Numbered from the stretch's first letter, positions 4,991 to 36,658 are shown. The stretch: 63,101 bases of DNA from a virus (IMGVR_UViG_3300014613_000003:1-63101), one strand, 5' to 3'. Numbers and translations are program-made. The notes: a model not told the origin generated them from the letters alone.

Positions 4991-5025
4991 AGCCCGCCAC
5001 ATCTAACGTGAGCGGGCTTTTTTTT
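4991..5025 (+). terminator. Rho-independent terminator
   Basis: AGCCCGC...GCGGGCT stem followed by a T-tract. Confidence 0.85.
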
Positions 5026-5034
5026 GCTCAAGCC

Positions 5035-5062
5035 TTGCACCGCCTCCCAAGTCACATAGCGT
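5035..5062 (+). promoter_or_regulatory. Late-type promoter copy 1 (TTGCAC-N16-TAGCGT, AGTCACA in the spacer)
   Basis: Same motif and spacing at six late operon starts. Confidence 0.75.
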
Positions 5063-5074
5063 CCGGCTCGTCAT

Positions 5075-5090
5075 GGGACGATTTCGTCCC
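5075..5090. promoter_or_regulatory. GGGAC-N6-GTCCC palindrome (putative protein-binding site)
   Basis: Perfect copy directly downstream of the late promoter; recurs across the genome. Confidence 0.6.
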
Positions 5091-5143
5091 TTGATCTACC
5101 GCGAACCCTTGGGGCCACTCCGATATGTGGCGGGACGAGGCAA

Positions 5144-6130
5144 ATGACACACGAAGAGTTTTTACAGCAGCACGGCGGGGAAATGACCCCCGAACTGGCC
5201 GCCCAGCTCCTAGAGCTTGGCGATATGGGCGATACCGGCACCCAGCCGGATGAAGGCGGCGAGCCCAACGCAGCCCCAGTGACGGACGAAAGCACCCCCG
5301 GCGCTACGGATGACAACGCAGGCAAGCCTGGCGCCAACGACGAACCAGAAGATCCGGCGAACGCCGTAGTCCTGGCGAAGGATGGGAAACACACCATTCC
5401 GTTTGAGAAGTTGGTAGAGGCACGCGAGGCACGTAAGACCGCAGAGGCAGCGCTGGCCGCCGCAAACACTGAGCTGGAAAGCCTTCGGGCAGCAGCACAG
5501 GAGCGCGCGGACGCCGGTATCGCACCAACGACGGCCGACAAGAACCTCGCAATTGCCGAGCAGGCGGTGGAACAGGGATTCGATCCAGGCCTTTTCGGGG
5601 ACTTCTCCGAAGAAGCGATCGCCAAGGGTGTGCAAACGCTGGTGGATCAGCGCGTCGGGGCCGCAGTTGCCAAGGCGCTCGAACCCTACCAGGCCAAGCA
5701 GACAGAGGACGCCACCGAACAGCACTTCAAGGCCATTTTCGAGAAGCACCCCGACGCCGATTCGCTTGCCGAGAGCAAGGAACTGGCCGACTGGATCGCT
5801 TCGCAGCCGAGTTTCGCGCGGGCCGGCTATCAAGCCGTGCTTGAGCAGGGCACGGCAACGGAGGTGGTGGAACTGTTCGACACCTTCAAGTCATCCACTG
5901 GAAAGACTCAACCCGCAGCCGCAGTGCAGGACTTGAAAGCCCGCGCCAAGGCAGCGGTCGCCAGCGCTAAGCCTGCGGTGCCGGCCAGCCTCTCGGATAT
6001 CCCTGGAGGAACACCTGGCCCGGCATCGAAGTTCGAGGCGCTGGACCAAATGAACCCCGCAGCACGGGTAGAGGCGCTGGAGGCTATGAGCCAGGCCGAC
6101 CGTGAACGGTGGTTTGAAACCCAAATGTAG
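5144..6130 (+). CDS. Capsid scaffolding protein
   Basis: Acidic coiled coil, TIPFEKL motif, immediately upstream of the capsid gene. Confidence 0.75.
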   Translation: MTHEEFLQQHGGEMTPELAAQLLELGDMGDTGTQPDEGGEPNAAPVTDESTPGATDDNAGKPGANDEPEDPANAVVLAKDGKHTIPFEKLVEAREARKTAEAALAAANTELESLRAAAQERADAGIAPTTADKNLAIAEQAVEQGFDPGLFGDFSEEAIAKGVQTLVDQRVGAAVAKALEPYQAKQTEDATEQHFKAIFEKHPDADSLAESKELADWIASQPSFARAGYQAVLEQGTATEVVELFDTFKSSTGKTQPAAAVQDLKARAKAAVASAKPAVPASLSDIPGGTPGPASKFEALDQMNPAARVEALEAMSQADRERWFETQM

Positions 6131-8036: not shown

Positions 8037-8062
8037 AAAAGGGGCCGCGATGGCCCCTTTTT
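8037..8062 (+). terminator. Rho-independent terminator (possibly bidirectional)
   Basis: AAAAGGGGCC-gcgat-GGCCCCTTTTT. Confidence 0.85.
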
Positions 8063-8076
8063 CATAGGGGAATCAT

Positions 8077-8928
8077 ATGAAAGTCATCCTGATATCACAT
8101 ATTGCGATGCTCGCCCATGAGGCGAACCGCGCCTATTGCCTGTCGCTGGGCGATGACAGCGTGCCCGTATGGGACGAGACGACCGAGGACCACCGCAACA
8201 GCATGCTGGCTGGCGTCGAAATGCACGCGGCCAACCCTGACGCCACACCCGAGCAGTCGCATGAATCCTGGCTAGCGCAGAAGACCGCACAGGGCTGGGT
8301 CTACGGCGAGGTCAAAGACCTGGAGAAGAAGATTCATCCGTGTTTCCGCCCCTATGCCGAGCTGCCGCCCGAGCAGAAGGCCAAGGACTACATTTTCCGT
8401 GGCGTCGTTCACGCCATGCTGCGCCTGGCCGAGGAAACCGAGCAGGAAGCCACGTCCGGTAGTGTCGATCCTGCAGCGGTGGTTGCCCTGGTGCCCGCGC
8501 CAACGATCGGCCTCGGTGAAATCGCCGTGACCTACATCGGTCGCCGCCCGACCTTTACCGATTCGATCTACGGTACCGGCCTGACCTTCGCCCAGCAGCA
8601 GACGCGCGTGCTGCCGGACGCGATCGCGGCCAAGTTCCTGCGGCATCCGGACGTGTTCGCCAAAGGCACCGGCGAGGCGGCGCAGGACGTAGCGCCGGGC
8701 GACGGCACCAACGAGGCGCTGGCCAGCATGAACAAGGACAAGACCGAGCAGGACAAGCAGCTCAACCAGTTGCAGGATCTGCGCGACAGCATCCAGCACA
8801 TGAACACCAAGGCCGCCCTGGAGGAGTTCGCGCGCACCAACTACAAGCAGGAGCTGGACAAGCGTAAGAGCCTGGCCGAGCTGCGCACCGAGGTGATTGG
8901 CTTCATTGACCGCTTCGGAGCCGTGTAA
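8077..8928 (+). CDS. RyR-domain protein fused to a head-region domain
   Basis: HESWLAQKTAQGWVYGEVKDLEKKIHPCFRPYAELPPEQKAKD is the RyR repeat signature. Confidence 0.8.
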   Translation: MKVILISHIAMLAHEANRAYCLSLGDDSVPVWDETTEDHRNSMLAGVEMHAANPDATPEQSHESWLAQKTAQGWVYGEVKDLEKKIHPCFRPYAELPPEQKAKDYIFRGVVHAMLRLAEETEQEATSGSVDPAAVVALVPAPTIGLGEIAVTYIGRRPTFTDSIYGTGLTFAQQQTRVLPDAIAAKFLRHPDVFAKGTGEAAQDVAPGDGTNEALASMNKDKTEQDKQLNQLQDLRDSIQHMNTKAALEEFARTNYKQELDKRKSLAELRTEVIGFIDRFGAV

Positions 8929-22990: not shown

Positions 22991-25900
22991 ATGGCTGATC
23001 TAAAGCCGTGGGAAGAATACGCGCAGCAACAGCCAGGCTCGACGCCAGCGCTTAAACCCTGGGAGGAATACGGCGGCACCACTGCGCCCGAGGCCTCCGG
23101 GGTGATCGACACCTTGAAAGAGGGCACCAAGAGCGCCGGCCGCGCGATCGGTTCCGCCGTCAACACCTACACAGGTAATGCCGATGCTGTAGTCGAGAAG
23201 GCCGCCGCGCAGCAGGAAGCGCCGAAAGACGAGCGCCTGGCCAATTTCTACAGCGACGTAGAGAAGAACAGCGCGGACGACAGCGAAGATGCTGGCGTGC
23301 TCGATGCGGTCGGCAATGTCGGTAAGGCGATATGGGACAACCCGGCCGGCGCTGGCCTGGCCGTCGTGGAGCAGATCCCGAACTCGGTACCGACCCTGGC
23401 TGGTGGCTTCGCTGGCATGAAGGGCGGCGCGGCGCTGGGTACTGCCGTGGGCGGCCCGGTCGGCGCTGCTGTAGGCGGTATCGCCGGCGGCCTGGCCGGC
23501 ATGTTCCTCGGTAACACGGCGATCGAAACCGGCCACAAGGCTATGGCCGCCGCCGATGACGGCGAGTACACGCCCGAGGAAATGGACCAGGTGAAGCGCG
23601 AAGGCGCTATCAAGGGTGGCGTTATCACCGGCGTGGATGCGCTGACCCTTGGCGCTGGTGGCCGGCTCGCTGGCGCCATGCAACGCACCGTTTCGACGGC
23701 TATGGAATCGGCGACCCGTAAGGCGCTGATCGACCGCGGCGTCGACGTGGCGGACGAGGCGTCCGTTCTGGCGGCCCGTAATGATCCGGCTATCAGCGCG
23801 GCCGTGCGTGCGGCTCAAGAGAGCGCCGTGAAGGCTACCGACACCCTCAAGCGTCGCGCGGCTGAGGCCGGCACGCTTATGTCCATGGAAACCGTGGGCG
23901 AAGGCGTGGGCGAGTACCTGGGCGAGCTGGCGGCCACCGGCGAGGGTAATGTTACCGATGCTGTGCTGGAGTCGCTGCTGTCCGTTGGGCAGTCCGGCGC
24001 CGAAACCGTCTGGAACATGACCCGCAAGCGCGAGCGCCCTGGCATGTGGACCGAGGCCGCCGCGATCGCCGATCCAACCCTGGACCAGGCCGCACCGCTG
24101 GAGGATCCAGCCGTCGATACGTCGACCGTCCAGCCGCTACCGAGCGAGGGCAACCCAGCACCGGCGCCGGTACCGCGCCCCGACCCGAGCAACGGCCCGC
24201 TGTCGGCCGCAGCCGCTGCGATGCCTGCCGCGCCGATCGCTGGTCCGCTGGCTGACGCTGTGCCGGCTGCCGAGGCTGTTGCAGAGCAGCCCGCGGCAGA
24301 GGCAACCGTGAGCGCCGAGGGACCACTGGCCGATGCGCCACCCATGAACGACTACGCCGCCGAGCAACCGCAAGCGGCTGCTGAGGTGCCCGCCACTAGC
24401 GAACCTGTCGCTACGCCGTCGCAGCGCGCCATCCTGACCCGTCGTGGCGTACCGGTCGAGCAGATCGCCAGGCTTAGCCAGAAAGCGGCCGGCGACCTCA
24501 TTAAGCAGCAGAACAAGACCCAGCAGGCCGGCAAGCCCGAGCCGCAGCAGATGGGCCTACAGGAGCCCGCCGCCGTCGAATCAGAACTGCGCGAGCAGCT
24601 GGGCTACCTGGAGCGCCAGGCGAAGTCGGCCGGCGGCTGGACCGCGCCGCTTAGTCGTGAGCGTGCGCGCCTTCGCGCCGCCCTGGAGCAGTTCGGCGGC
24701 GAGCAGGCAGCCAAGCAACCCGCGGCCGATCCGATCCAAGGCCAGGACATTGACGGCGACTGGATGACCTTCGCCGAGCAGTCCGGTACCAAGCAGGTAC
24801 CGCGCGCCAACATGCCGCAGATCAAGGCCGAGCACCGCGGCGCGATGGTCAATTTCCTGAATGCCCGCGGCATTACGCACCAGGACGAATCGGTGCCAGC
24901 CGCCAGCCTCAAGCCGACGCAGGGCGAGTTCAGCCGCAAGAAGGTGGAGCAGGCCAAGGCCTACACCGGCGGCAACCGCAGCATATTGGTTTCATCCGAT
25001 AATCATGTGCTTGACGGTCATCACCAGTGGCTCGCAGCCCGTGAGGCCGGCGAGGACGTGAAGGTTATTCGCCTGGGCGCGCCGATCGAGGATCTGTTGA
25101 CCGCTGCCGCGGAGTTCCCTAGCTCGACTACCGCCGAGGGCGCGACCACTGCGCAGGCTCCGGAAAAGCCGGCAGCGGAGCAGGTAAAGGCTGCGCGCAA
25201 GCCCAAGCAGGAGGCTATGCCGACGCAAGCATTCAAGTCGACGGCAGGCGTGGGCGACATATTGGCGGTGAAAGAGCGCTACAGCGACGACAAGTTCGGT
25301 GTGTCTTGGTCGAGCACTGATATTGCGAGCGCCGGCTCGATGGAGGAAGCCGCGGCGATCGCCAAGGCCGTCGCCGAGTCGGGCGCCGACAATATCACCG
25401 ATATGCGTGCTGCTGCTGCCAAGTTCCGTAGCGCGGCGCCAGCTGATCAAATGGCCGTCAAAGACGCAGCCCCCGCCACGCCTGACGCAGCGCCAGTCAA
25501 ATGGTTCGCGTCCGAGAGCAAGGCCAATGACTTCATCGCCAAGAAGAAGCTCAGCGCCACGCACCAGGTGGTAAAGAACGGCAGCAAGTACGAGATTCAG
25601 CCGCTGGCAGAGCAGCAAGGGGACTTAATAGTCCAGCAGCCTCCGGTAGTTGAGCCTACCCCCGCAGCGGAACCCGTGGTTGAACAGGTCGAGGAGGCTG
25701 CCAAGGCGCCCGAGCCGTCAGTAGAGGCTGCCGAGCAAGACACCGACAGCCAGAAGCCGGCCGTGCCGAGCGATGCGGAGCTAGAGCTGGCGTCCCGGCA
25801 CAAGAAGATCGACAAGACCCTTGATCTGATGGATGACGCGCAGATCACGGATCTGTACGCCCGCGCCAACCTGGCGGGAGCCGCTACACCTGTTGAGCAA

Positions 25901-28900
25901 AAGCGCAAGATCCTGAGCCAAGAGCATCCCGACGACATTGAGCCACTGTTGAAGCCGAAAGCCGAGCCGGCCGCCAAGGCGCCCGAGCCTGAGACTGCGC
26001 CGGAGTCAACCAGCATTGCGGTGCGCAGCATTCGCGCGGGCAAGCAGCTGGCCCTTGCGCTGGAAGCTATCGGCTTTACCAAGATCGAAGGCACCAACGG
26101 CATGAAGCATGTAGTGGAGGGCGCCGGCCGCGCCGCCACCACCAGCGTTCGCCCCATCCGCACGGACGACCAGATCCAGTTCCAGGTCTCGTCAGTGACC
26201 ACCAGTATGCAAGACGGTCGCATGAAATCGGCAGCGCCGGGCATGACGGAAACCTTCGACAGCATGGACGAGGCGGTCGCCCTGGCCGCGCAGTGGCAGG
26301 AAGTAAACCGCAAGTGGGTACGTGACGCGGTAGCGCCGTCCGGTACAGCTCAAGCCGCCGATACTGGAGTCCCGATCGAGGACGCCCGCAAGAGCGACAA
26401 GCTACGCCAGGCGCGCAAGATGGGACTGGACGCATACAACGCAGGCGAGGAACGCACGCCGCCGGCATGGATGGGCGAGGGTGATATTGCTGATGCCTGG
26501 CTGGTCGGCTTTGGTGACGGCATCGCGGCGAATCTCCAGCGCAACATGGACGCCGCCAAGGAGCAGGAGAAGGTCGCCGCGCCTGACCTTGCGCAGCAGC
26601 TCGCCGGCATGAGCAACGCCGCCCTGTCGTCGCTGATAGACGATATCGCCGCCGAGGACGCACAGGTCGCCGACACGGCCAAGCCTGCGCCCAAGCGCAA
26701 GCGCAAGACCCAGCCGAAGGCCAAGGACGCCACGCCGAAGCCGCGTAGCACCACGTCGCCGGCCGAAAGCGCCGACGAAACCGACGCTGCCGACGTCGAG
26801 CGCACTGCCGGCGAGATTGCCAAGAGCTTCGGCTACAATGTCAGCAGTGCCGGCATGGAAGCGATCAAGGGGCTTACCGAGCTGTTTGGTGGATCCGGCA
26901 AGCTGTCCAGCGGTCTGACGTTTGACGAGGAAACCTACGCCAAGGCCAAGCCGCACTTCCAAGCCATGTTGCGTGACGCACAGGCAGCCGGGCACGACCT
27001 GGCGCAGTTCGTCCGGACGGTATTGCAGAGCTTCGGAACCGGCGTAAAGCCGTACATCATCCGCTACGCCAACGACCTTCGGGACGAGGTGGCGCAGCCG
27101 CAGGAGAACACCAATGGCACAGACAGCACTCAGCCCGCAGTGGATCGCGGAAATCCGGCAGGAGTACCAGGCGCTGCTGGCGGACGAGGAAACGATGCAC
27201 AATCGGGATCTGCACCGGCGGATTCTGACGGCGTGGCGTCTGGAGAGCCCGAAAATGTGGGCGAACCTGGCGCGGGCGGGACTGACGACGCCGCTGGCCT
27301 ACGTCCTGCAAAACCGGATGTGGACGGAAATGGACGAGCTGCTGGGGCAGGGCGTGCCGGTAACGGACGCGAAGGAACAGGCCGAGCGAAACCATCTGAT
27401 GATGGAGCCCGAGCAGACCGAAGCCCAAGCGTAACCCCGACCAAGGCGCCCGCCGAGGTCAGTCCAGGCAATCCCGGCCCTGGCAATTTCCATGTAGCTG
27501 ACCCGCTCAAGATCGTAGGTGGCGGCCAGGTCGCCCGCTTCGACAAGAACCGTGCGGCGATCGACCTGTACAACGACCTGCGCGCCGAAGGCCGTCCGGC
27601 CACCCGTGAAGAACAGGAAACACTCGCCGGCTATACCGGCTGGGGTTCGTTCGGTCAGGAGTTGTTCCAAGGCAGTTGGGCGCACCCGGCGCCTAAGAGC
27701 GGCTGGGAAGCGCGCGATAGCTGGTTGCGCGACAACCTGGGGCAAACCGAGTGGGAAGGCCTGCAACGCTCGATCACCAACGCCCACTACACCGACCCGC
27801 CGACCGTTATGGCGATGTGGGAAATGGTGAAGCGCATGGGCTTCGACGGCGGCCGTGTTCTGGAGCCGTCCATGGGTATCGGCAACTTCTTTGGCATGAT
27901 GCCGGCCGACCTCAAGGCGCGCAGTCAGCTTGCCGGCATCGAGCTTGATCCGGTCACGGGCGGCATGGCCAAGCTGCTGTACCCCGAGGCTAACGTCCAG
28001 GTGAAGGGCTACCAGGATTCCAAGACGCCCGACGGCTTCTATGACCTGGTGATAGGAAACTGGCCGTTCGAGGACACGGTGATCGCCGATCGCCGGTACC
28101 AGCGCCTGAACCCGTACCTACACGACTACTTTTTCCTGAAAGCGGTGGACCAGGCGCGCGCGGGCGGCCTGGTGGTCGGCATTACGTCCAAGGGCAGCAT
28201 GGACAAGAAGTCGATCGGGATCCGCGCCGAGCTGGCCAAGAAGGCCGAGCTAGTGGCGTCGTTCCGCTTGCCGTCTGGCGCCTTCAAGGAATACGCCGGT
28301 ACCAGCGTCGTGACGGATATCGTCATTCTGCGCAAGCGTCCCGAGCCGGTGCGCAACATCAGTGACGCCGGCTGGATTGAATCGGTCGACTACAAGACGC
28401 CGAGCGGCGAAACCGTCTCGATCAACGAGTATTACGTCAAGAACCCGCAGAACGTCATCGGCACTATCGACTTCGGCCACGGGACCACCTTCAAGCGGCC
28501 GGGCATGATCGTTCACCGCCCCGACAACATGGCCGAGCAGCTGGTACGCATCACTGCTATGGCGCCCGAGGGCGCTTTCCAGCCGGAGCGCCAAGCCAAA
28601 ACCGTCAGCTATGTGGCCAATCACACCGACGACCGCGAGAACTCGCTGATCCGTACCAAGGACGGCTTGTTCGTGGTGCGTGGCGAGTACCTGGCGCCGG
28701 CCGTCGACGTGCTGAGCTACAAGATCAAGAACGAAGCCACCAATGCCCAGCGTGAGGATCAGCTGGACCGCCTTATCACCCTGCGCAAGCAGTACGCCGC
28801 GCTGATCGACGCGCAGCGCACCGGCGACGCAAAGACCGAGCGTAAAGCGCTCAAGGCGAGCTACGACGCCTTTGTCGCCAAGCACGGCACGATCAACGGC

Positions 28901-31900
28901 AGTTACGGCCTCAAGTACCTACAGCGCATTGACGACCCGTTCTACGCCTCCCTGGCGGCGCTGGAGATTCAAGGCAAGGACGGCGCCCTGGTGCCCTCGG
29001 CGATCATGTCCAAGGCCACCACGCGCGGCGCGCTGAACATCCAGAGCCCGAGCATCACCGATGCCTACGTGCTGGCGCGCAACCAGTCGATCAACCCAAC
29101 CATTGAGCAGGTCGCTGAGCTGGCGAAGAAGCCGGCCGCCGAGGTGAAAGCCGAGCTACTGGCTAAGGGTGCTGTGTTCGAGCTGCCGAGCGGCGACGTG
29201 GTGCCGGCCGATATCTACCTGTCGGGCAACGTGCGCGAGAAGCTGCGCGATGCCAAGGCCGCCGTCGCCGAAGGCCTGGCGCAGCTGCAAAGCAACGTCG
29301 CCGCCCTGGAGAAGGTGGTGCCGGCCGACGTGCCGTACTACAAGATCGAGGCGCAAATGGGCGCGTCGTGGGTATCGACCGGCATCTATGCCGAGTACGT
29401 CGCCCATATGCTCAACCTGACCACGCCGGACGGCATCGACGTGAGCTATTCCAACGGTCGTTGGAAAATCAAGCTGCCCAAGGGGGCGAACAATCGCGCC
29501 GAGGCCAGCGCCGGGTTTGGTACCCGAGAGGTGCCATTCTCCCGCCTGGTCAACGCCGCGATCACCAACCAGACAATCAACATCACCCGCAAGGGCAGCG
29601 ACGGCAAGAGCTACAACGACCCCGAGGCGACGAAGGAGGTCAACGGCAAGATCAGCGAAATCCGCCAGCGCTTCGGCGAATGGCTGTGGTCCGACCCCGA
29701 GCGCCGCAGCGCCGTGGAGCGCGAGTACAACGACGCCCGCAACGCCTACGCCACGCCGAACTTTGACGGCTCCGTGCTGGGCTTCGAAGGCATGGCGCTG
29801 AGCCTGGGCAACGGCCCGTTCGACCTGCGCAAGCATCAGATGGATGCGATCTGGCGCGCCCTGGTCATGCGCCGCTCGCTCAACGCGCACGAAGTCGGTA
29901 CCGGCAAGACCTTCACCATGGGCGGCATCGCCGTGGAGTCGCGCCGCTACGGCATCGCCAAGAAGCCGCTGATTCTGGCGCACAACGCCAACAGCAAGTC
30001 GGTCGCCGCTGAAATCCAGATGATGTACCCGGCCGCCAAGGTGCTCTACATCGACAACCTGTCGCCCGATACCGTCGATATCAAGCTGCGCCAGATCGCC
30101 AACGACGATTGGGACGCGGTGGTACTGCCGCACTCGCTGATCGACCGTCTGGCGTTCAAGGAAGAAACCCTCATGGCGATCGCCTACGAGGAAATCCGCG
30201 AGCTGGAAATCGCCGCCGCTGAGGCTGCCGCCGAGGATGGCGTGGATCTGACCAAGGAAATGCTCGACGATGAAAAGGCGCTGGAGAAACTGCGCTCCGT
30301 CACTGCGAAAGACCTGGTGAAAACCCGCAACAAGATCATTAACACGATCAAAAAGCAGGCGCAGCAGGCCTCCCGAGAGGGCGCGACCGCGTTCGAGGAT
30401 CTAGGCATTGACATGGTGCTGGTGGACGAGGCGCACGAGTTCAAGAAGCCGCCGTTCTCCACGCAGATGAAGATGAAGGGTCTACAAACCCAATCGTCGA
30501 ACCGCTCGATCGCGCTGGCGTTCCTGACCAAGTACATACGCACCAACAATGCCGGCGGCAACGTCCACCTGTTCACCGGGACACCGATCACCAACACGCT
30601 GACCGAAGTGTTCCACCAGATGCGCTACATCATGCAAGAGGAAATGGAGGCGGCCGGCGTCGATCAGTGGGACGGCTGGTTCGGCTCGTTTGCCCGTGAA
30701 GTCACCGACGTTGAACTGAACGCCGCGGCTGAGTACGAGGCCGTCACGCGCCTGTCCGCCTTTATCAACGTGCCCGAGCTGCGCCGGATGATCGGGCAGT
30801 ACATGGACGTGGTATTCGCCGACGACATGCCGGAAATGAAGCCGCGCCGAACCGCCACCGGCAAACTGTTGAGCGATTCGGATCTGACCGAGGCCGAGCG
30901 CGCCGAGCTGCTGAACGGCCGCACCGAGCAGGCCAAGGACCGCCCGTACAAGAAGGTCATCGTTGATACCGCCGACCTGACCGACGAACAGAAGATCGAG
31001 TTCCAGAAGATCCAGGGCTACGCCCGTGCCTGGCGCAACATGAGCGGCAAAGAGCGCAAGCAGGCAATGAACGCCGGCGACCCTGAATCGCCGATCATCT
31101 ACGAAAACCTGGCAGGCAAAGCCAGCTTTGACGTGCGCCTGAACCGTGGCGCCGAGCTGGCCGGGCAGGAAGGGCGTGTGCCGGACACCGACGACAGCAA
31201 GTCGAGCCGCGTGATTCGCAACGTGCTGGAGATATACGGCTCGCACCCGCTCGCCACGCAGGTGATTTTCGCGCAGCAAGGCCTGTCGACCACCGCGACC
31301 AAGAGCGTTGGTCCTGTCGGCGACAAGCGTAAGGTGACGTACAAGACGTTCTCCACCATGCGCGATATGGTCGAGCGCCTGGTCCAGCAGGGCATCCCGC
31401 GCGAGCAGATCGCGATCGTCGACGGCAGCACCAGCAAGGACAAGCGTAAGGCGATCGCCGATGCCATGAACCGCGCGGAGATTCGTGTGGTCATTGGCAG
31501 TTCGCAGTCGCTTGGCGTGGGCGTGAACATGCAGCGCAACCTGCGCGCCATGCACCACATGGATGCCCCATGGATGCCGGGCGACCTGGAGCAGCGCAAT
31601 GGCCGCGGCCACCGCCAGGGCAACCAGTGGAACACGGTGCTCGAGTACCGCTACCTGACCGACCGCCTGGACGGGCGCCGCTGGCAGGTGCTGGCGATCA
31701 AGCAGCGCTTTATCACGGCGTTCCTCAAGGCCAATGACGCTGACCGCGTGATTGAAGGCGACGCCGCCGGCGAGGAAGAAAGCGACATCCTCGAAACCTT
31801 CGCCGAGGCGGCCGGGGATCCGCGCATTCTGGTGCGTGAAAAGCTGAACAAGAAGATCGACCAGCTGCAATCGCGCGAGCGTCTACACGGCCAGGCTGTG

Positions 31901-34900
31901 TCGGATGCCCGCCGGTCGCTGCGCATCACCCGCGAGCGCCGCGACGAGCAGCGCGCCAAGCTCAAGGCGCTGGACGATGCCGGCGTGGTCGAGGCCGTGG
32001 AGGCGCTGACCAAGGCCACCATGGGCGCTGGCTTCACCATGACCGTGGACGGCACCGAGTACGACACCCGTAAGGATGCCGAGGCCGCCATTGCTGCCTT
32101 TGCTGAGGAACACGTCCGCACCGGCGACAAGCGCCAGCACTCGGTCGGAAACTTCGGCGGCCACGCGCTGAGCCTGTCCTGGCCGCAGTGGGCCGATCAG
32201 CCGGTTATGACGGTGGATATCAACGGCACGCCGCTATCGAGCCGTAGCCTGCGGATGCAGAGCCTGGAAACCGCCCTGCGCGGCTATCCGGAGGAAATCC
32301 AGAAGCAACGCAATGAAGTGGTCGAGGCGGCGCGCACCCTTACCCGCCTGGAGCAGGTAGCGGCCGAGCCGTTCCACATGGCTGCCGACCTGGAGCGCGC
32401 CAAGAAGGACTACGAGCTGCTGGAGAAAGACCTGGAGCAAAACCCGGTACCGCCGCCGGCATGGCTGCGCAGTGGCGTGCCGGTCGATACCGAAGTGACC
32501 TGGAAGAACAAGACCTTTGTAGTCACTGGCCACCGCTGGAACAAAGACGGCTGGTTCGTGCTGGCGGCGGATGCCAAGGGCAACGTAGTGATTCCATACA
32601 CCGAGGCGCGGGACGCGCAAGGGATGGCCATCTACGAGGAGCGCGCTTTCGAGGCGCCGGAAGTGGTCACGAAGGACAACCCGGCAGGCCTGACCGAGGC
32701 CGACCGCGTACCGGAAGATTCAGGCGTCCGGCTCAGTCGTGCCGGTGGGCGTCCGTCCGGTGCTACCCGCGTCAGTTATCTCGACCGGCGGACAGTAGAA
32801 CAACTCGCCGTCGAAGCCGTGGGCGAAGCCACCGCGCGCGATCGGTTTGTCTTCACCAGCTACGCCGACCTTCCCGAGGATGTGAAAGCGGAAGCTACGC
32901 GCCAGGGCGCGGCGCCACGAACGGTACAGGGTCTTTACAGTCCCAAACATAACAAGACCTTCATTATTGACGATCGGTTTACCAGCGCAGACGAAGCGAA
33001 GGGCATCATGTTCCATGAGCATTATGTCCACTTCGGCCTGCGCGCCAAGTATGGGCTCCAGCTGGGGCCGCAACTGCGCCAGCTGCTGAACGGCGTCGGC
33101 GGTCTGGACGGTATACGCAAGCTGTCCCGCGAGCAGGGTATCAACCTGGCCGCCTACGAGCGTGGCATCCTGGGCAATCCGGAAATCGCCGCATCCAAGC
33201 AGCCGCTTATCCTGATGGAGGAATTGCTGGCGCACATTGGCGAAACCACCGGCTCGCTACGCCGCCTGCTGGAGGAGTTTGTGGGAATGCTGCGCGCCTG
33301 GGCACGCAAGGCGCGCTCTAACTGGTTCGCCGAGCTGGGCGTTACCGACATGGCCTACGTGCTGCGCGAGGCTCGAAATGCGGCCAAGCAGGCCGACCGG
33401 GCGCCCAAGGGCCAGCCGATGTTCAAGCTGGCCGGTGGCGTCGACCAGACCGGCACCGATGCGTTCCAGCGCTGGTTTGGCGACTCCAAGGTAGTCGACA
33501 AACAGGGCGAGCCGCGCGTGCTGTATCACGGCACCGCCAATGACTTCACCGTGTTCGAGAATCGGTCGGGCAACAGCACCGGGCACGCCACGTCGGACCT
33601 GGGCTACTTTATGACCACCGAACGCAGCAGCGCCGAGGGCTATGCCCGCAACGCCAGCGACGGCATGCCAGGGCTGTCGAAGGTCATGGAGCTGTATGCG
33701 TCGATCAAGAACCCCTACACCGCCACGCTGGCGGAAATGCAGGCGATCGAAAACCCGCTCCAGGCGCGTCGATTCCGCGCCAAGCTGGAGCAGGCTGGGC
33801 ACGACGGCATCCATATCCCGGCGCAAAAGGCCTGGGTCGCGTTCGCCAACTACCAGATCAAGTCGGCCACCGACAACGTGGGCACCTTCGACGACTTCGA
33901 TGCTGATATTCGGTTCAGCCTGGCCGGCGGCTTCCTGGGCCGCCGCGAGCCGTTCGAGCTGACCGCGCGCAACGCCAAGCGCAGCCTGAAAGGCCGCCTG
34001 GCTGACCTGAAACCGGCACTGCTGGGCGCGCTGCCGCTGACCTACATGCGCGACTTTGCTCCGCAGTCGATGACCGCGCTATCGGCCTACATGGACGAGA
34101 AACGCGCCATGGATGCCGATCGCAACGAAATGCACACCCGCTATGACGCGATCGCACAGCGCTGGCTGAAACTGCGCTGGACCGATCGCAAGGCTGAGCA
34201 GCGCCTGGCCGACCTCATGCACTCGGCAACCCTGGAAGGCGTAGACCCCAGCAAGCCGATCAAGGACAGCTACACGCCCGAGCAGAAGGCGACCTATAAC
34301 CGTCTGCGGATGCAGTACCAATCGCTGCCGGAAGGGCATCGCGCGATGTTTGGCGATGCGCGGGACGCCTACAAGCAACAGGTCACGACCCTGGAGGGTG
34401 TGATCGAGGAAAACATCCGCAAGTCGGCCGAGTACGCCAAGAAGCGCGCGCGCCGCGATCGGGATGCCGATATCGAGCGGGCCAAGGACGAGCTGACCGG
34501 CGACGAGCTGGACGAAGCCCTGGAGGCGGCCGACAAGCGCTACAACGGCCGCGTGGCGTCGGCTGAGCAGGGTGGCAGCGCGAAGATCCTGCTGCTGCGC
34601 CAGAAGTTCGAGAGCATGCGGGTCGACGAGCCTTACTTCCCGCTCAAGCGCTACGGCGAATACTTCGTTGCGCTGCGCGACGGTGACGAACTGGTGTCGT
34701 TCTCGATGTTCGAGAGCGCCGCCGACATGGAGGCCGCCGCCGCTGAGCTGCGCAAGACCTACCCGAGCCTGGACGTGAAGGTGGGCCGGCAGTCGAATAA
34801 GCAGGAGCTGGAGGGCGCGGTGGACCCGGCCTTTATCGCCGACTTGCAGGACGTGGTATCGCGGATGCCCAACAGCAAGGAACTGTCCGACCAGATTTAC

Positions 34901-36658
34901 CAGATGTACCTGGAAACCATGCCGGACTTCTCCATGCGCAAGGGCTTCATTCACCGGAAGAAGACGGCCGGCTTCGACCGTGACGCCATGCGTGCCTTTG
35001 CCAGCTCCATGTTCCATAGCTCGTACCAGATCGCCCGACTGAAACACTCGCTGGAAATGAACGAGCTGGTCGAGCAGGTCGAGGAACAGGCCAAGGCCGC
35101 TGCCGATCCGGTGGACGCTATGACCATTGCGAACGAGCTCAGAAAACGCCATGAGTGGGTGATGGCGCCCAAGGGCGGCAAGATCGCGCAGCACATTACA
35201 TCGGCCGCGTTCGTCTATCAGCTGGGCCTGACCCCGGCCGCTGCGCTGGTGAACACCTCGCAAACCTGGATGATGGGTATCCCGATCCTGGGCGCGCGCT
35301 TTGGCAGCGAGACGAAAGCCATGGCGGCGCTGGCCAAGGCGTCCAAGGACTTCGTACAGGGTCGCGGCCACATCGAGAAGACGCTGGAGGGCGACGAAGC
35401 GCTGGCCGCTGCCGAGTTCATCCGCATGGGCTTGTGGGACAAGACTCAATCACATGACTTGGCCGGCGTCGGCGACACCGGCGTGGAATACAACCCGCTG
35501 CGCCATAAGGTGATGGGCTATATCAGCTGGGCGTTCCACAACGCCGAGCGCTACAACCGAGAGGTTACGTCGCTGGCCGCTTACCGCATGGCGCGCGAGA
35601 GCGGCCTGGACCATGAGGCAGCGATCAAGGAATCGGTCGAACTGACCTACACAACCCACTTCGACTATTCGAGCGGCAACCGCGCCCGGTACCTGCAAAA
35701 CGACACGGCCAAGGTCTTGTTCGTGTTCCGCCAGCACTCGATCAACATGCTGGCGCGCCTGGTGATTGATATCCGCGGCGCCATGAAGGGCGAGACACCG
35801 GAGGTCAAGAAGGCCGCCAAGCGTCGTCTGGCGGGCATGTTCTCGATGTTCGCGCTGTTCGCCGGCGCCATGGGCATTCCCGGTATGACGGCCATTCTGG
35901 CGCTGCTGGACCTGTTCGATGACGAAGACGACCCGTGGAGCGCCGAGGACAAGATCAAGCGCAACCTGGTGGAAGCGCTGGGGCCGGACGTGGCCAAGGT
36001 GGTCTTGCACGGTGCCCCCGGTACCGCGCTGGATCTGTCGCTGACCGAGCGTATCGGCATGGGCAGCCTGTGGTTCTGGTCGCCTGGCCGCGAGCTGGAA
36101 GGCAAGGACTCGTATCTGTACTGGATGGAGCAGGTACTGGGCGCTGCGCCGGCGATGGTCAGCAATGCCTTTACCGGCATGAGCATGATCGGCGAGGGCC
36201 ACGTCTGGCGCGGTATCGAGGCGATGATGCCCAAGGCGATCAAGGATGTGATGCGTTCGGGCCGCTACGCGCAGGAAGGCGTACAGACCATGAACGGCGC
36301 GTCCCTGGTCGACGACGTGAGTACCTGGAACCTGATTTCTCAGGCGATGGGCTTCACGCCGGCGCACATTGCCGAGCGCTACGACACCAACAGCGCCTTG
36401 AAGACCGCCGAACAGCACGTCCTGAACGAGCGCCGCAGCATCCTCAACCGTTACGCCATGGCCATGCGTCAGGGCGACAACGAGACGCGCGGCGCGCTGC
36501 TGGAGCGGATCCGCTCGTTCAACGGCCGGTACCCGCAGTACCCCATCACCGGCAAGACCATATCGGCATCGCTCAAGGCCCGCGCGCGCCGTGAGGCTGA
36601 GGCCGAGGGCGGTCTGACGATCAACCGTCGTTTGGAGTTCCTGCGCGACCAGCTGTGA
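22991..36658 (+). CDS. Giant DarB-like polyvalent internal virion protein (ParB-N-like, N6-adenine MTase, SNF2 helicase, zincin-like, ART-like, PLxRFG domains)
   Basis: VLDGHHQW (~25010); NAHYTDP, LEPSMGIGNF, IGNWPF (~27780-28070); AHEVGTGKT (~29885), DEAH (~30425), QRNGRGHRQGN; FHEHYVH (~33010); WFGDSKVVD...LYHGT (~33470); YFPLKRYG (~34635). Confidence 0.9.
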   Translation: MADLKPWEEYAQQQPGSTPALKPWEEYGGTTAPEASGVIDTLKEGTKSAGRAIGSAVNTYTGNADAVVEKAAAQQEAPKDERLANFYSDVEKNSADDSEDAGVLDAVGNVGKAIWDNPAGAGLAVVEQIPNSVPTLAGGFAGMKGGAALGTAVGGPVGAAVGGIAGGLAGMFLGNTAIETGHKAMAAADDGEYTPEEMDQVKREGAIKGGVITGVDALTLGAGGRLAGAMQRTVSTAMESATRKALIDRGVDVADEASVLAARNDPAISAAVRAAQESAVKATDTLKRRAAEAGTLMSMETVGEGVGEYLGELAATGEGNVTDAVLESLLSVGQSGAETVWNMTRKRERPGMWTEAAAIADPTLDQAAPLEDPAVDTSTVQPLPSEGNPAPAPVPRPDPSNGPLSAAAAAMPAAPIAGPLADAVPAAEAVAEQPAAEATVSAEGPLADAPPMNDYAAEQPQAAAEVPATSEPVATPSQRAILTRRGVPVEQIARLSQKAAGDLIKQQNKTQQAGKPEPQQMGLQEPAAVESELREQLGYLERQAKSAGGWTAPLSRERARLRAALEQFGGEQAAKQPAADPIQGQDIDGDWMTFAEQSGTKQVPRANMPQIKAEHRGAMVNFLNARGITHQDESVPAASLKPTQGEFSRKKVEQAKAYTGGNRSILVSSDNHVLDGHHQWLAAREAGEDVKVIRLGAPIEDLLTAAAEFPSSTTAEGATTAQAPEKPAAEQVKAARKPKQEAMPTQAFKSTAGVGDILAVKERYSDDKFGVSWSSTDIASAGSMEEAAAIAKAVAESGADNITDMRAAAAKFRSAAPADQMAVKDAAPATPDAAPVKWFASESKANDFIAKKKLSATHQVVKNGSKYEIQPLAEQQGDLIVQQPPVVEPTPAAEPVVEQVEEAAKAPEPSVEAAEQDTDSQKPAVPSDAELELASRHKKIDKTLDLMDDAQITDLYARANLAGAATPVEQKRKILSQEHPDDIEPLLKPKAEPAAKAPEPETAPESTSIAVRSIRAGKQLALALEAIGFTKIEGTNGMKHVVEGAGRAATTSVRPIRTDDQIQFQVSSVTTSMQDGRMKSAAPGMTETFDSMDEAVALAAQWQEVNRKWVRDAVAPSGTAQAADTGVPIEDARKSDKLRQARKMGLDAYNAGEERTPPAWMGEGDIADAWLVGFGDGIAANLQRNMDAAKEQEKVAAPDLAQQLAGMSNAALSSLIDDIAAEDAQVADTAKPAPKRKRKTQPKAKDATPKPRSTTSPAESADETDAADVERTAGEIAKSFGYNVSSAGMEAIKGLTELFGGSGKLSSGLTFDEETYAKAKPHFQAMLRDAQAAGHDLAQFVRTVLQSFGTGVKPYIIRYANDLRDEVAQPQENTNGTDSTQPAVDRGNPAGVPGAAGGRGNDAQSGSAPADSDGVASGEPENVGEPGAGGTDDAAGLRPAKPDVDGNGRAAGAGRAGNGREGTGRAKPSDDGARADRSPSVTPTKAPAEVSPGNPGPGNFHVADPLKIVGGGQVARFDKNRAAIDLYNDLRAEGRPATREEQETLAGYTGWGSFGQELFQGSWAHPAPKSGWEARDSWLRDNLGQTEWEGLQRSITNAHYTDPPTVMAMWEMVKRMGFDGGRVLEPSMGIGNFFGMMPADLKARSQLAGIELDPVTGGMAKLLYPEANVQVKGYQDSKTPDGFYDLVIGNWPFEDTVIADRRYQRLNPYLHDYFFLKAVDQARAGGLVVGITSKGSMDKKSIGIRAELAKKAELVASFRLPSGAFKEYAGTSVVTDIVILRKRPEPVRNISDAGWIESVDYKTPSGETVSINEYYVKNPQNVIGTIDFGHGTTFKRPGMIVHRPDNMAEQLVRITAMAPEGAFQPERQAKTVSYVANHTDDRENSLIRTKDGLFVVRGEYLAPAVDVLSYKIKNEATNAQREDQLDRLITLRKQYAALIDAQRTGDAKTERKALKASYDAFVAKHGTINGSYGLKYLQRIDDPFYASLAALEIQGKDGALVPSAIMSKATTRGALNIQSPSITDAYVLARNQSINPTIEQVAELAKKPAAEVKAELLAKGAVFELPSGDVVPADIYLSGNVREKLRDAKAAVAEGLAQLQSNVAALEKVVPADVPYYKIEAQMGASWVSTGIYAEYVAHMLNLTTPDGIDVSYSNGRWKIKLPKGANNRAEASAGFGTREVPFSRLVNAAITNQTINITRKGSDGKSYNDPEATKEVNGKISEIRQRFGEWLWSDPERRSAVEREYNDARNAYATPNFDGSVLGFEGMALSLGNGPFDLRKHQMDAIWRALVMRRSLNAHEVGTGKTFTMGGIAVESRRYGIAKKPLILAHNANSKSVAAEIQMMYPAAKVLYIDNLSPDTVDIKLRQIANDDWDAVVLPHSLIDRLAFKEETLMAIAYEEIRELEIAAAEAAAEDGVDLTKEMLDDEKALEKLRSVTAKDLVKTRNKIINTIKKQAQQASREGATAFEDLGIDMVLVDEAHEFKKPPFSTQMKMKGLQTQSSNRSIALAFLTKYIRTNNAGGNVHLFTGTPITNTLTEVFHQMRYIMQEEMEAAGVDQWDGWFGSFAREVTDVELNAAAEYEAVTRLSAFINVPELRRMIGQYMDVVFADDMPEMKPRRTATGKLLSDSDLTEAERAELLNGRTEQAKDRPYKKVIVDTADLTDEQKIEFQKIQGYARAWRNMSGKERKQAMNAGDPESPIIYENLAGKASFDVRLNRGAELAGQEGRVPDTDDSKSSRVIRNVLEIYGSHPLATQVIFAQQGLSTTATKSVGPVGDKRKVTYKTFSTMRDMVERLVQQGIPREQIAIVDGSTSKDKRKAIADAMNRAEIRVVIGSSQSLGVGVNMQRNLRAMHHMDAPWMPGDLEQRNGRGHRQGNQWNTVLEYRYLTDRLDGRRWQVLAIKQRFITAFLKANDADRVIEGDAAGEEESDILETFAEAAGDPRILVREKLNKKIDQLQSRERLHGQAVSDARRSLRITRERRDEQRAKLKALDDAGVVEAVEALTKATMGAGFTMTVDGTEYDTRKDAEAAIAAFAEEHVRTGDKRQHSVGNFGGHALSLSWPQWADQPVMTVDINGTPLSSRSLRMQSLETALRGYPEEIQKQRNEVVEAARTLTRLEQVAAEPFHMAADLERAKKDYELLEKDLEQNPVPPPAWLRSGVPVDTEVTWKNKTFVVTGHRWNKDGWFVLAADAKGNVVIPYTEARDAQGMAIYEERAFEAPEVVTKDNPAGLTEADRVPEDSGVRLSRAGGRPSGATRVSYLDRRTVEQLAVEAVGEATARDRFVFTSYADLPEDVKAEATRQGAAPRTVQGLYSPKHNKTFIIDDRFTSADEAKGIMFHEHYVHFGLRAKYGLQLGPQLRQLLNGVGGLDGIRKLSREQGINLAAYERGILGNPEIAASKQPLILMEELLAHIGETTGSLRRLLEEFVGMLRAWARKARSNWFAELGVTDMAYVLREARNAAKQADRAPKGQPMFKLAGGVDQTGTDAFQRWFGDSKVVDKQGEPRVLYHGTANDFTVFENRSGNSTGHATSDLGYFMTTERSSAEGYARNASDGMPGLSKVMELYASIKNPYTATLAEMQAIENPLQARRFRAKLEQAGHDGIHIPAQKAWVAFANYQIKSATDNVGTFDDFDADIRFSLAGGFLGRREPFELTARNAKRSLKGRLADLKPALLGALPLTYMRDFAPQSMTALSAYMDEKRAMDADRNEMHTRYDAIAQRWLKLRWTDRKAEQRLADLMHSATLEGVDPSKPIKDSYTPEQKATYNRLRMQYQSLPEGHRAMFGDARDAYKQQVTTLEGVIEENIRKSAEYAKKRARRDRDADIERAKDELTGDELDEALEAADKRYNGRVASAEQGGSAKILLLRQKFESMRVDEPYFPLKRYGEYFVALRDGDELVSFSMFESAADMEAAAAELRKTYPSLDVKVGRQSNKQELEGAVDPAFIADLQDVVSRMPNSKELSDQIYQMYLETMPDFSMRKGFIHRKKTAGFDRDAMRAFASSMFHSSYQIARLKHSLEMNELVEQVEEQAKAAADPVDAMTIANELRKRHEWVMAPKGGKIAQHITSAAFVYQLGLTPAAALVNTSQTWMMGIPILGARFGSETKAMAALAKASKDFVQGRGHIEKTLEGDEALAAAEFIRMGLWDKTQSHDLAGVGDTGVEYNPLRHKVMGYISWAFHNAERYNREVTSLAAYRMARESGLDHEAAIKESVELTYTTHFDYSSGNRARYLQNDTAKVLFVFRQHSINMLARLVIDIRGAMKGETPEVKKAAKRRLAGMFSMFALFAGAMGIPGMTAILALLDLFDDEDDPWSAEDKIKRNLVEALGPDVAKVVLHGAPGTALDLSLTERIGMGSLWFWSPGRELEGKDSYLYWMEQVLGAAPAMVSNAFTGMSMIGEGHVWRGIEAMMPKAIKDVMRSGRYAQEGVQTMNGASLVDDVSTWNLISQAMGFTPAHIAERYDTNSALKTAEQHVLNERRSILNRYAMAMRQGDNETRGALLERIRSFNGRYPQYPITGKTISASLKARARREAEAEGGLTINRRLEFLRDQL
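27114..27434 (+). CDS. Nested (overprinted) 106-aa helical protein in the +1 frame of the giant gene
   Basis: AGGAG 7 nt before the ATG; high GC3 in this frame while the host frame turns low-complexity with A/T-ending codons. Confidence 0.75.
   Translation: MAQTALSPQWIAEIRQEYQALLADEETMHNRDLHRRILTAWRLESPKMWANLARAGLTTPLAYVLQNRMWTEMDELLGQGVPVTDAKEQAERNHLMMEPEQTEAQA

Follow-up and report, generated by a model that had tools for sequence, protein, structure and literature searches.

In this study we analyzed a stretch of viral DNA of 63,101 bp (IMGVR_UViG_3300014613_000003:1-63101; the whole stretch is called the window below), which is a complete virus record with terminal repeats and has a GC content of 64%. 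The largest gene of the window is a giant open reading frame (ORF) encoding a DarB-like polyvalent virion protein of 4555 amino acids (aa), and inside this gene, in the +1 frame, lies a small ORF of 106 codons. Our results showed that the DNA shared by the two ORFs is dual-coding. That is, selection acts on the protein sequence encoded by the small frame, and for the giant frame over the same nucleotides it acts only on openness. The small ORF has start signals of its own, recurs at the same position in many related loci, and moves as a gene-sized unit. It is very probable that this nested gene is real and expressed. The explanation that we favor as a whole, to which we give a probability of roughly 0.75, is that the nested gene is translated separately, that its frame is the older of the two, and that its product is an accessory or regulatory factor for restriction-type motor enzymes. 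The restriction- or antirestriction-related function, taken by itself, is a tentative proposal that we place somewhat below even odds. The features on which the argument turns are as follows.

22991..36658, plus strand: giant gene for the polyvalent DarB-like virion protein, frame 0 (from the ORF list, the translation, and PHROG and Pfam matches)
27045..27047, plus strand: TAA closing the +1 frame 23 codons before the nested ATG (from the sequence)
27102..27106, plus strand: Shine-Dalgarno (SD) sequence AGGAG, 7 nt ahead of the nested ATG (from the sequence)
27114..27434, plus strand: nested gene, +1 frame, with a predicted five-helix product of 106 aa and an isoelectric point (pI) of about 5 (from the ORF, the GC pattern, homologues, the ratio of nonsynonymous to synonymous substitution rates [dN/dS], and an AlphaFold2 [AF2] model)

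A reading made earlier from the DNA alone (the sequence-only reading) had pointed to the AGGAG at 27102-27106, the ATG at 27114, and the 106-codon ORF in the +1 frame. All of these are present, and the translation is identical to the one quoted in that reading. The start ATG occupies 27114-27116 and the stop TAA 27432-27434, and the giant ORF stays open throughout; the T of this ATG falls on the third position of an Asn codon in the giant frame. The same reading had described G/C-ending codons in the small frame and A/T-ending codons in the giant frame, which agrees with the GC content at the third codon position (GC3) over 27114-27431, 0.82 for the small frame against 0.42 for the giant frame. 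At codon positions 1/2/3 of this interval, the giant frame had values of 0.82/0.70/0.42 and the +1 frame 0.70/0.42/0.82, compared to 0.66/0.46/0.81 for the whole giant gene. Since the profile of the +1 frame resembles that of the whole giant gene, it is the +1 frame that holds the coding pattern over 27114-27431. When the giant gene was scanned in 300-nt sliding windows, the giant-frame GC3 fell below 0.62 solely in windows within 27041-27640, and the shift of the codon-position GC pattern from frame 0 to frame +1 was confined to 27114-27431. Alternative-frame ORFs are frequent in this region (70 ORFs of at least 60 aa in 16 kb). An open frame by itself is therefore weak evidence in this GC-rich DNA, and it is the composition switch and the comparative data that go beyond chance.

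The start of the nested ORF carries the signals expected of a gene start. For 91 unique nested starts, the median SD duplex energy was -6.4 kcal/mol, compared to -2.8 kcal/mol for 1820 control ATGs, which were the other ATGs of the same giant ORFs. An anti-SD energy of -4 or lower was found at 81% of the nested starts and at 28% of the control ATGs (Mann-Whitney p=8.7e-25); the automatic choice of the start was sometimes wrong, which makes the SD figure conservative. A Met is aligned at the nested start in all 11 of the 11 aligned sequences. Across the loci, the +1 frame is closed by a stop 0-103 codons (median 15) ahead of this Met, and the +1 translation upstream of the Met is not conserved. 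Because the +1 frame closes so shortly before the Met and the upstream +1 sequence is unconserved, internal initiation is favored over a frameshift. Translation of the nested ORF would thus begin internally on the giant mRNA, from its own SD and ATG. No Rfam, promoter-like, or terminator-like element was found in 26500-27700.

The dN/dS values of the two frames, which the sequence-only reading had proposed as a check, revealed purifying selection on the small frame. In three close pairs, dN/dS was 0.27-0.30 for the small frame and 1.4-2.6 for the giant frame. In 22 independent pairs, with each sequence used once and with 70-97% nucleotide identity, the median was 0.32 for the small frame and an apparent 1.68 for the giant frame. 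The value was below 1 for the small frame in 22/22 pairs and for the giant frame in only 1/22, and it was lower for the small frame in every pair (Wilcoxon p=4.8e-7). In these 22 pairs the differences at small-frame codon positions 1/2/3 were 0.17/0.13/0.27, and this order of variability (3>1>2) favors the sense small frame over an antisense gene. An antisense gene was considered and rejected: of the minus-strand ORFs overlapping the site, the one that shares third positions is open only from 27299. A near-identical relative found in run X2 differs from the window at 19 sites in the methyltransferase (MTase) part of the giant gene, all of them synonymous in frame 0. In the overlap it differs at 8 sites, of which 5 alter a residue of the linker and 4 leave the small protein unchanged.

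The giant frame was constrained in another manner. When the synonymous codons of the small gene were resampled according to the codon usage of each locus (5000 trials per locus, 9 loci), the giant frame was left open in only 0.000-0.134 of the trials per locus. T-ending small-frame codons before codons beginning with AA, AG, or GA were completely absent, the counts ranging from 0/24 to 0/49 per locus. The parts of the giant gene upstream and downstream of the linker are in the same frame in every nested locus. Since the giant frame is open against expectation and its flanking parts share one frame, we conclude that both readings are maintained.

Homologous +1 ORFs proved to be recurrent when they were sought by tblastn and profile searches and by scanning the +1 frames of other DarB-like genes, as the sequence-only reading had suggested. 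A tblastn search of the 106-aa product against 50,697 phage records gave two matches, Pseudomonas phages vB_PaeM_USP_25 and vB_PaeM_USP_18, at 54% identity; a tblastn search against plasmids gave none. The match in USP_25 is a +1 ORF inside a single giant coding sequence (CDS), and the record annotates the giant CDS only. In the window, USP_25, and ten IMG/VR loci taken together, the small frame was stop-bounded and the giant frame open in 12/12, the small frame measuring 103-156 codons from stop to stop and the frame one base behind it being open for 1561 to more than 4500 codons. A distant subfamily with a GC content of 0.49-0.67 showed the nested arrangement in 10/10 loci, with a GC3 of 0.77-0.92 in the small frame and 0.33-0.50 in the giant frame.

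The same arrangement was seen when the loci were not selected by the small protein. Among viral loci retrieved through the MTase region alone (48-95% identical), 79 of 80 had the small ORF, always in the +1 frame and just upstream; the sole miss had just 335 nt of upstream DNA before the contig end. Part of these 80 contigs overlap loci from the earlier searches. In the 18 of 21 loci that showed N[FY]H, the motif at the start of the conserved module, the stop of the small ORF lay between -30 and +51 nt from it. Nine of ten loci from bacterial genomes were nested, presumably within prophages, and 20 of 26 metagenome loci were enclosed by the other frame. After pooling, a match was present in 137/138 loci. 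When identical proteins were removed and three proteins without an ATG near the profile start were left out, 101 unique proteins with such an ATG remained, of which 91 were strictly nested, 7 free-standing, and 3 on a short contig or in short enclosing frames.

We also found 119 phage records with a related MTase, and four of them, 37-42% identical, were examined closely. PEp14, Itty13, and Atu_ph08 possess a shorter homologue at the same +1 position (hmmsearch E values of 6.5e-8, 1.6e-7, and 5.1e-9, respectively; hhalign probability of 89% for PEp14). All three show the GC3 switch seen in the window, and their ATG is preceded by GAGG or GGAG. Bcep22 has a positional analogue, a 107-aa +1 ORF with AAGGAGG and the same GC3 switch. 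The sequence-only reading had expected standard annotation to miss such an ORF, and the nested ORF is indeed unlisted in the feature tables of the five cultured-phage stretches, which give the giant CDS or other CDSs only. In Itty13 (L150, MW460249), the two CDSs annotated here are opposite in strand to the DarB-like frame matched by tblastn (39.6% identity over 98% of the query), and it seems that the giant gene is annotated on the wrong strand in this record.

Two other loci showed altered forms of this region. In Pseudomonadaceae genomes the small family is rare (3/401), and one of the copies is decayed: in L147 (G095:C2, reverse complement of 8051-8400), the small ORF is frameshifted after '...YQKGG' and the MTase module is truncated. 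Among the cluster representatives of the L147 subfamily, P0051 is broken at the same point as L147, and P0066 and P0136 are broken earlier, which suggests a lineage of broken copies. In L132 (2240-3278), a metagenome contig of 41% GC, the polyvalent gene is split into a 747-aa N-terminal ORF, an ORF of about 160 aa whose product looks, by eye, ferritin-like, and a third ORF that begins about 35 codons before the nested gene and ends just past the motif that starts the MTase module.

The free-standing copies number seven (L107, L118, L121, L122, L130, L133, and L139). The copy in L122 aligns closely with that of phage L009; the alignment starts near the ATG and extends through the conserved core, with a few mismatches per 100 columns as judged by eye. 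The flanks are unrelated, and the L122 copy has its own AAGGAGG. In L107 and L122 the small ORF is intact and the giant frame is broken. The gene-sized match of L122, together with the intact ORFs of L107 and L122 without a giant frame, indicates that the gene moves and persists as a unit. For a 49-kb metagenome contig from run X2, the match to the window (95-99%) begins at 27112, 2 nt ahead of the nested ATG, and upstream of this point the contig continues unlike the window (the limit of the match was set at an 85% threshold); the start of the small gene seems to coincide with a mosaic boundary.

Five of the free-standing copies have at least 1 kb of upstream sequence, and three of these lie directly downstream, on the same strand, of genes for restriction-enzyme motors. 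In L122 the gene that precedes the small gene encodes a Type III restriction enzyme (PADLOC REase_III, E=9.5e-124), and in L118 it encodes a Type I R subunit (REase_I, 4.9e-23; TIGR00348, 4.1e-38; T1R_D3-like). In L107 the small gene is preceded by the C-terminal part of a homologue of the HsdR of L118 (BLASTP 2e-31). The L107 copy is also near a Tn3-like tnpA and a resolvase gene, and the L133 copy is near tniB and a transposase gene with integrase-core and Mu-transposase C-terminal domains.

The small protein has a predicted mass of about 12 kDa and a pI of 4.97. The AF2 model, made with 14 sequences, consists of five helices (pLDDT 82.6, pTM 0.74), in agreement with the helical, globular sequence described in the sequence-only reading. 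A profile search of 1.84 billion representatives, with the profile seeded by the window protein (P0001), gave 221 matches at E<=1e-3, of which 117 reached E<=1e-10. Lengths among the best 150 representatives range over 44-329 aa and are mostly about 100-135 aa. The core of the family reads W..xP.M...L...LA.V.Q.RMW...AGMP.TDAREQAE..LMLEPE and is followed by an acidic tail. The family is unnamed, and it is located in the +1 frame just upstream of the LPD36-MTase region.

The sequence-only reading had noted, by eye, a resemblance to DUF1896 and TnpV, which was not confirmed. According to the same reading, DUF1896 genes precede MTase-helicase genes in conjugative elements, and DUF1896 (PF08989) and TnpV (PF14198) are small helical proteins, as is the nested product. 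Neither Pfam model matched the six frames of the window at E<=1, although control genomes gave matches in the DUF1896 scan with a hidden Markov model (HMM), and the six families to which any of the 14 members gave a match at E<=5 include neither of them. The structure of PDB 2apl_A, which we take to be a DUF1896 member, gave Z 5.3, a root-mean-square deviation of 3.1, 67 aligned residues, and a Foldseek probability of 0.41 with the small protein, values within the noise for helical proteins. An Atlas cluster with 11% TnpV members scored 0.83, which is also within the noise, and all Atlas scores were below 0.9.

The giant protein of the window matches PHROG 10089 'DarB-like antirestriction' (E=0), as well as PHROG 11801 and PHROG 62, and contains the Pfam domains LPD39, ART-PolyVal, Helicase_C, and ResIII. 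An MTase and a superfamily 2 (SF2) helicase form a dyad within this single, very large multidomain phage protein. The parts around the nested gene are as follows.

26873..27100, plus strand: helical domain preceding the linker ('LTELFGG...KPYIIRYANDLRDEV'; from motif position and translation)
27113..27484, plus strand: linker, giant-frame residues 1375-1498, 124 residues of low complexity rich in G, A, P, and D (from the translation)
27485..29770, plus strand: start of the conserved module ('NFHVADP...', the LPD36 position), MTase core, and region up to the helicase (from motif positions)
29678..32152, plus strand: SF2 helicase part of the MTase-helicase dyad (from PHROG 62 at residues 2230-3054, ResIII, SNF2-rel_dom, and Helicase_C)

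The linker contains G27 A21 P15 D12 among its 124 residues and no stop, as expected from the low-complexity but open giant-frame stretch that the sequence-only reading had described. The conserved module carries the MTase core motifs VLEPSMGIGNF and GNWPF, and its mean column identity was 71% and 64% in alignments A6 and A8, respectively. The helicase motifs GTGKT and DEAHEFK are found at residues 2303 and 2479 of the giant protein. The LPD36 label was assigned by position, from the module description in PMC5512222, and no model matched it in this protein. The domain that precedes the linker varies among the loci, with at least three types, and the MTase module downstream is constant.

Elsewhere in the giant gene, two other dips of GC3, in each of which the GC3 of another frame equals or exceeds that of the giant frame, were considered as sites of a second nested gene and rejected. 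The dip at 24041-24490 is an Ala/Pro-rich low-complexity stretch without a long +1 ORF, and that at 32591-33040 contains a 163-aa ORF only in the +2 frame, with a GC3 of 0.46-0.52. Further downstream, residues 3503-3838 of the giant protein (33497-34504 of the window) comprise two domains, ART-PolyVal (E 1.3e-20), which is an ADP-ribosyltransferase domain, and then LPD39 (E 6.4e-46).

The origin of this arrangement can be considered as follows. The small frame has the codon pattern of the genome and constraint at the protein level, and the giant frame has neither; we therefore think that the small gene is probably the older frame and that the linker of the giant protein was overprinted on it. 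The domain before the linker varies, the MTase module after it is constant, and a history of fusion is the most economical. In the ancestral state, the small gene would have stood before an MTase-helicase gene. An upstream gene would then have become fused to the MTase-helicase gene through the small gene, read in the -1 register, which would have produced the linker, and both readings would have been locked since that time. The sequence-only reading had placed a gene overprinted with the DarB-like linker directly before the MTase module and had proposed that it was kept as a nested gene when the module was fused. Our data support the former claim, and they make the latter the most likely course, in that both the codon pattern and the purifying selection belong to the small frame and the giant frame is selected only for openness.

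As for expression and role, we suppose that some ribosomes start at the internal SD and ATG of the giant mRNA and produce the mildly acidic, five-helix protein, and that for ribosomes in frame 0 these 320 nt encode a disordered linker of Gly, Ala, Pro, and Asp. The linker would connect the variable N-terminal modules to an antirestriction module composed of LPD36, the MTase, and the SF2 helicase. The small gene appears to travel with the MTase-helicase module and to occur alone in bacteria, behind hsdR (Type I) or res (Type III). Its product may be an accessory or regulatory factor that acts on ATP-driven motors of the restriction-modification type, within antirestriction, and its targets may be the MTase-helicase of the phage itself, the restriction enzymes of the host, or both. 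A role in connection with restriction motors is our best guess because of the strict company of the MTase-SF2 helicase and the capture of the gene behind hsdR and res. The sequence-only reading had proposed a dedicated partner (chaperone, inhibitor, or loader) of the MTase-helicase module; such a partner may exist, but the free-standing copies behind hsdR and res point more broadly, to motors of the restriction type as a whole.

Several results weigh against this explanation. The restriction link consists of three loci on short contigs of metagenomes or metagenome-assembled genomes, which are possibly chimeric, and the free-standing copies in L121, L130, and L139 have unrelated neighbors. Comparisons with known proteins gave no clue to function. 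Foldseek searches of PDB and BFVD gave nothing at E<=0.001, the best Z in the VIA structure search was 5.6, below the noise level for helical proteins, and a sequence profile search of PDB gave 0 matches at E<=10. In Pfam, only DUF2924 was matched, in 4 of 14 members and far below the cut-off (E 0.18 for P0001, 0.033 at best), and PHROGs, NCBIfam, and PADLOC gave no match to the small protein. The homology of the +1 ORF of Bcep22 was not demonstrable (hmmsearch E 0.03, hhalign probability 1.6%). Among the RNA-labelled runs, X19 and X20 contained only short contigs of relatives that are 85-95% alike, and no transcription of this phage was shown. Finally, the small domain is in frame with an upstream helical domain in PBC5, L118, P0022, P0055, P0099, and P0157, and since such forms exist, a fusion product made by frameshifting is conceivable.

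These fused forms were inspected. Fusions of the 'SGIDPE...' helical domain to the small domain, in frame, are recurrent (P0157, L118, P0022, and P0055); those of L118 and P0157 are complete ORFs, and some of the other fused forms may be assembly errors. Longer in-frame forms were represented by one 280-aa protein among 8000 scored candidates, which is weak evidence either way. P0157 opens with a partial duplicate of the N-terminus of the small protein, and its C-terminal extension ('...LQDAPQNLKDRWREA...') is common to the free-standing L107 and to P0023. In Sinorhizobium phage PBC5 (L152, NC_003324), at about 5000-5440 of the locus, the DarB-like gene is split into two CDSs, and the N-terminal ORF (gp22) runs in the frame of the small protein and ends at the small stop. 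A homologous 'AAEVE..DVADI' stretch changes frame there, about 15 codons ahead of the small Met, and its two parts are read in different frames. The change looks like a single-base insertion or deletion; either the old sequence contains an error or the fused form is real.

We considered whether a programmed +1 frameshift appends the small domain to the N-terminal part of the giant protein and yields a truncated isoform that ends at 27434. The in-frame ORFs just described, among them PBC5 gp22, speak for such an event, as does the top BFVD match, which is to part of a long protein of viral origin (E 0.28, TMq 0.58). However, the +1 stop lies only 0-2 codons before the ATG in several loci, such as L098, L011, L027, and L106, so there is no room for a conserved shift site; no open upstream +1 frame with such a site was found, and no formal search for slippery sites was made. 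Moreover, the Met and SD are conserved, the free-standing copies begin at the same Met with their own SD, the split in PBC5 resembles an indel, and the databases are biased toward broken forms, as an intact nested ORF goes uncalled on long contigs. We therefore regard a frameshift as very unlikely. Re-initiation, with the small ORF as a leader for a separate MTase-helicase, was rejected, because frame 0 offers no start codon (ATG, GTG, or TTG) from the stop of the small ORF to the NFH motif. It is also hardly credible that the small ORF is a non-functional shadow frame or relic whose conservation stems from constraint on the giant frame or on the nucleic acid. Long alternative-frame ORFs are indeed common in this GC-rich DNA, but the purifying selection acts on the small frame and not on the giant one, it is the small frame that shows the coding GC pattern, and the site lacks any RNA or promoter-like element of the kinds searched for. 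In addition, a deep and diverse protein family with a confident fold and conserved start signals, with intact copies outside any giant gene, would not be expected of a relic.

Two other roles for a genuine nested gene have to be weighed. The small protein might be a stand-alone antirestriction inhibitor of host Type I and Type III motors, in the manner of Ocr, ArdA, or Ral, and not a helper of the MTase-helicase, the nesting then reflecting only shared timing and selection. The captured copies directly downstream of hsdR (L107 and L118) and res (L122) would suit an inhibitor, as would the mild acidity of the protein and its conserved acidic 'LMLEPE' tail, and P1 DarB is reported to be active against Type I restriction (PMC5512222). 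On the other hand, it would be odd for a host to keep an inhibitor co-oriented behind its own restriction gene, and the product of a gene within a late virion gene would need to be co-packaged in order to act early. The small protein also shows no Pfam or PHROGs similarity to known antirestriction families, and the link to restriction genes is again that of only three loci. We consider this role possible but rather unlikely. A morphogenetic helper, that is, a chaperone for the folding or packaging of the giant protein that is made in cis while the MTase domain is emerging, without any part in restriction and with restriction neighbors that are coincidental in defence or mobile-element islands, seems less probable still. 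In its favor are the strict synteny with the giant gene, the captured copies among transposon genes (L107 and L133), and the DarB-like protein of JC1, which is virion-associated by mass spectrometry according to PMC9144972. But the free copies are intact without a giant gene nearby, and the position of three of the five behind restriction-enzyme genes is hard to ascribe to chance. We therefore retain the explanation of a separately translated, older gene whose product would serve restriction-type motor enzymes.

Small phage proteins that modulate ATP-dependent restriction-modification enzymes are known in lambda Ral and Rac Lar, and Ulx/DdrA-type accessories are required for the incorporation of DarB. 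The likeness to Ral and Lar is an analogy of role only; such a role would suit a place beside an MTase and behind hsdR and res. The Dar system of P1 resembles the present one in that a virion protein with an MTase-helicase is accompanied by small accessory genes, ulx lying directly downstream of darB. P1 DarB, however, has neither the linker nor the N-terminal modules, and its gene contains no nested gene. The small protein showed no similarity to P1 Ulx or DdrA (hhalign probability 0.14% and 0.03%, respectively), and the family HMM found no match in the P1 region 1-30000 (best E 1.7).

With regard to gene arrangement, a close parallel is Rz1 within Rz of the spanins. As in the present case, the embedded gene is complete and is read in the +1 frame of the longer gene from a start of its own, with conservation of both reading frames; both of those products are needed. 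In the present case, by contrast, the host gene encodes a 4555-aa virion polyprotein of which only a disordered linker is overlapped, the small frame is apparently the older one, which makes the linker the novel part, and the family has no relation to spanins. An embedded Rz1 is described in the same phage group in the accessible part of the JC1 paper (PMC9144972), which mentions no gene within the DarB-like gene. The giant gene is a member of the polyvalent proteins with LPD36, MTase, and SF2 helicase treated by Iyer et al. 2017 (PMC5512222), and the nested gene ends at the start of the LPD36-MTase part. The available text of that paper contains 'overlapping' 0 times, 'frameshift' 0 times, and 'reading frame' once, for neighboring small ORFs, and describes no second frame in the linker; nor does the available part of the paper on the USP phages mention a second frame. 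A literature search in a limited collection gave nothing relevant on nested or overlapping genes in DarB-like or polyvalent genes. Nested phage genes are a known arrangement, and what is new here is the giant injected protein, the probably older frame beneath a fusion linker, and an uncharacterised family associated with restriction enzymes.

Taking these points together, we speculate, as a picture that is unlikely to hold in its entirety, that the small protein represents a new class of small factor acting directly on SF2 motor subunits. The phage would make it together with, and perhaps co-package it with, the DarB-like MTase-helicase against Type I and Type III restriction, and bacteria and mobile elements would repeatedly have captured the gene by itself and placed it after hsdR or res, where it would adjust the activity of these enzymes. 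The hinge of the giant protein would have been made by reading through the older gene, leaving an obligatory dual-coding segment that is conserved across a wide group of Proteobacteria phages of about 60 kb.

The present findings add an unannotated and widely conserved gene to well-studied phages, namely the relatives of Bcep22, PEp14, Itty13, Atu_ph08, and USP_18/25, and to more than 90 distinct uncultured loci. What has been regarded as a linker of a giant injected antirestriction protein is dual-coding DNA, and proteomic searches as well as linker engineering by deletions, tags, or codon changes unknowingly touch a second gene. If the order of origin is as we think, this would be a clear natural case in which the overprinted novelty is a disordered linker born of a gene fusion and not a new small protein. 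The family, which has no known fold relative and is found alongside Type I and Type III enzymes and the DarB-type MTase-helicase, is a candidate player in restriction and antirestriction.

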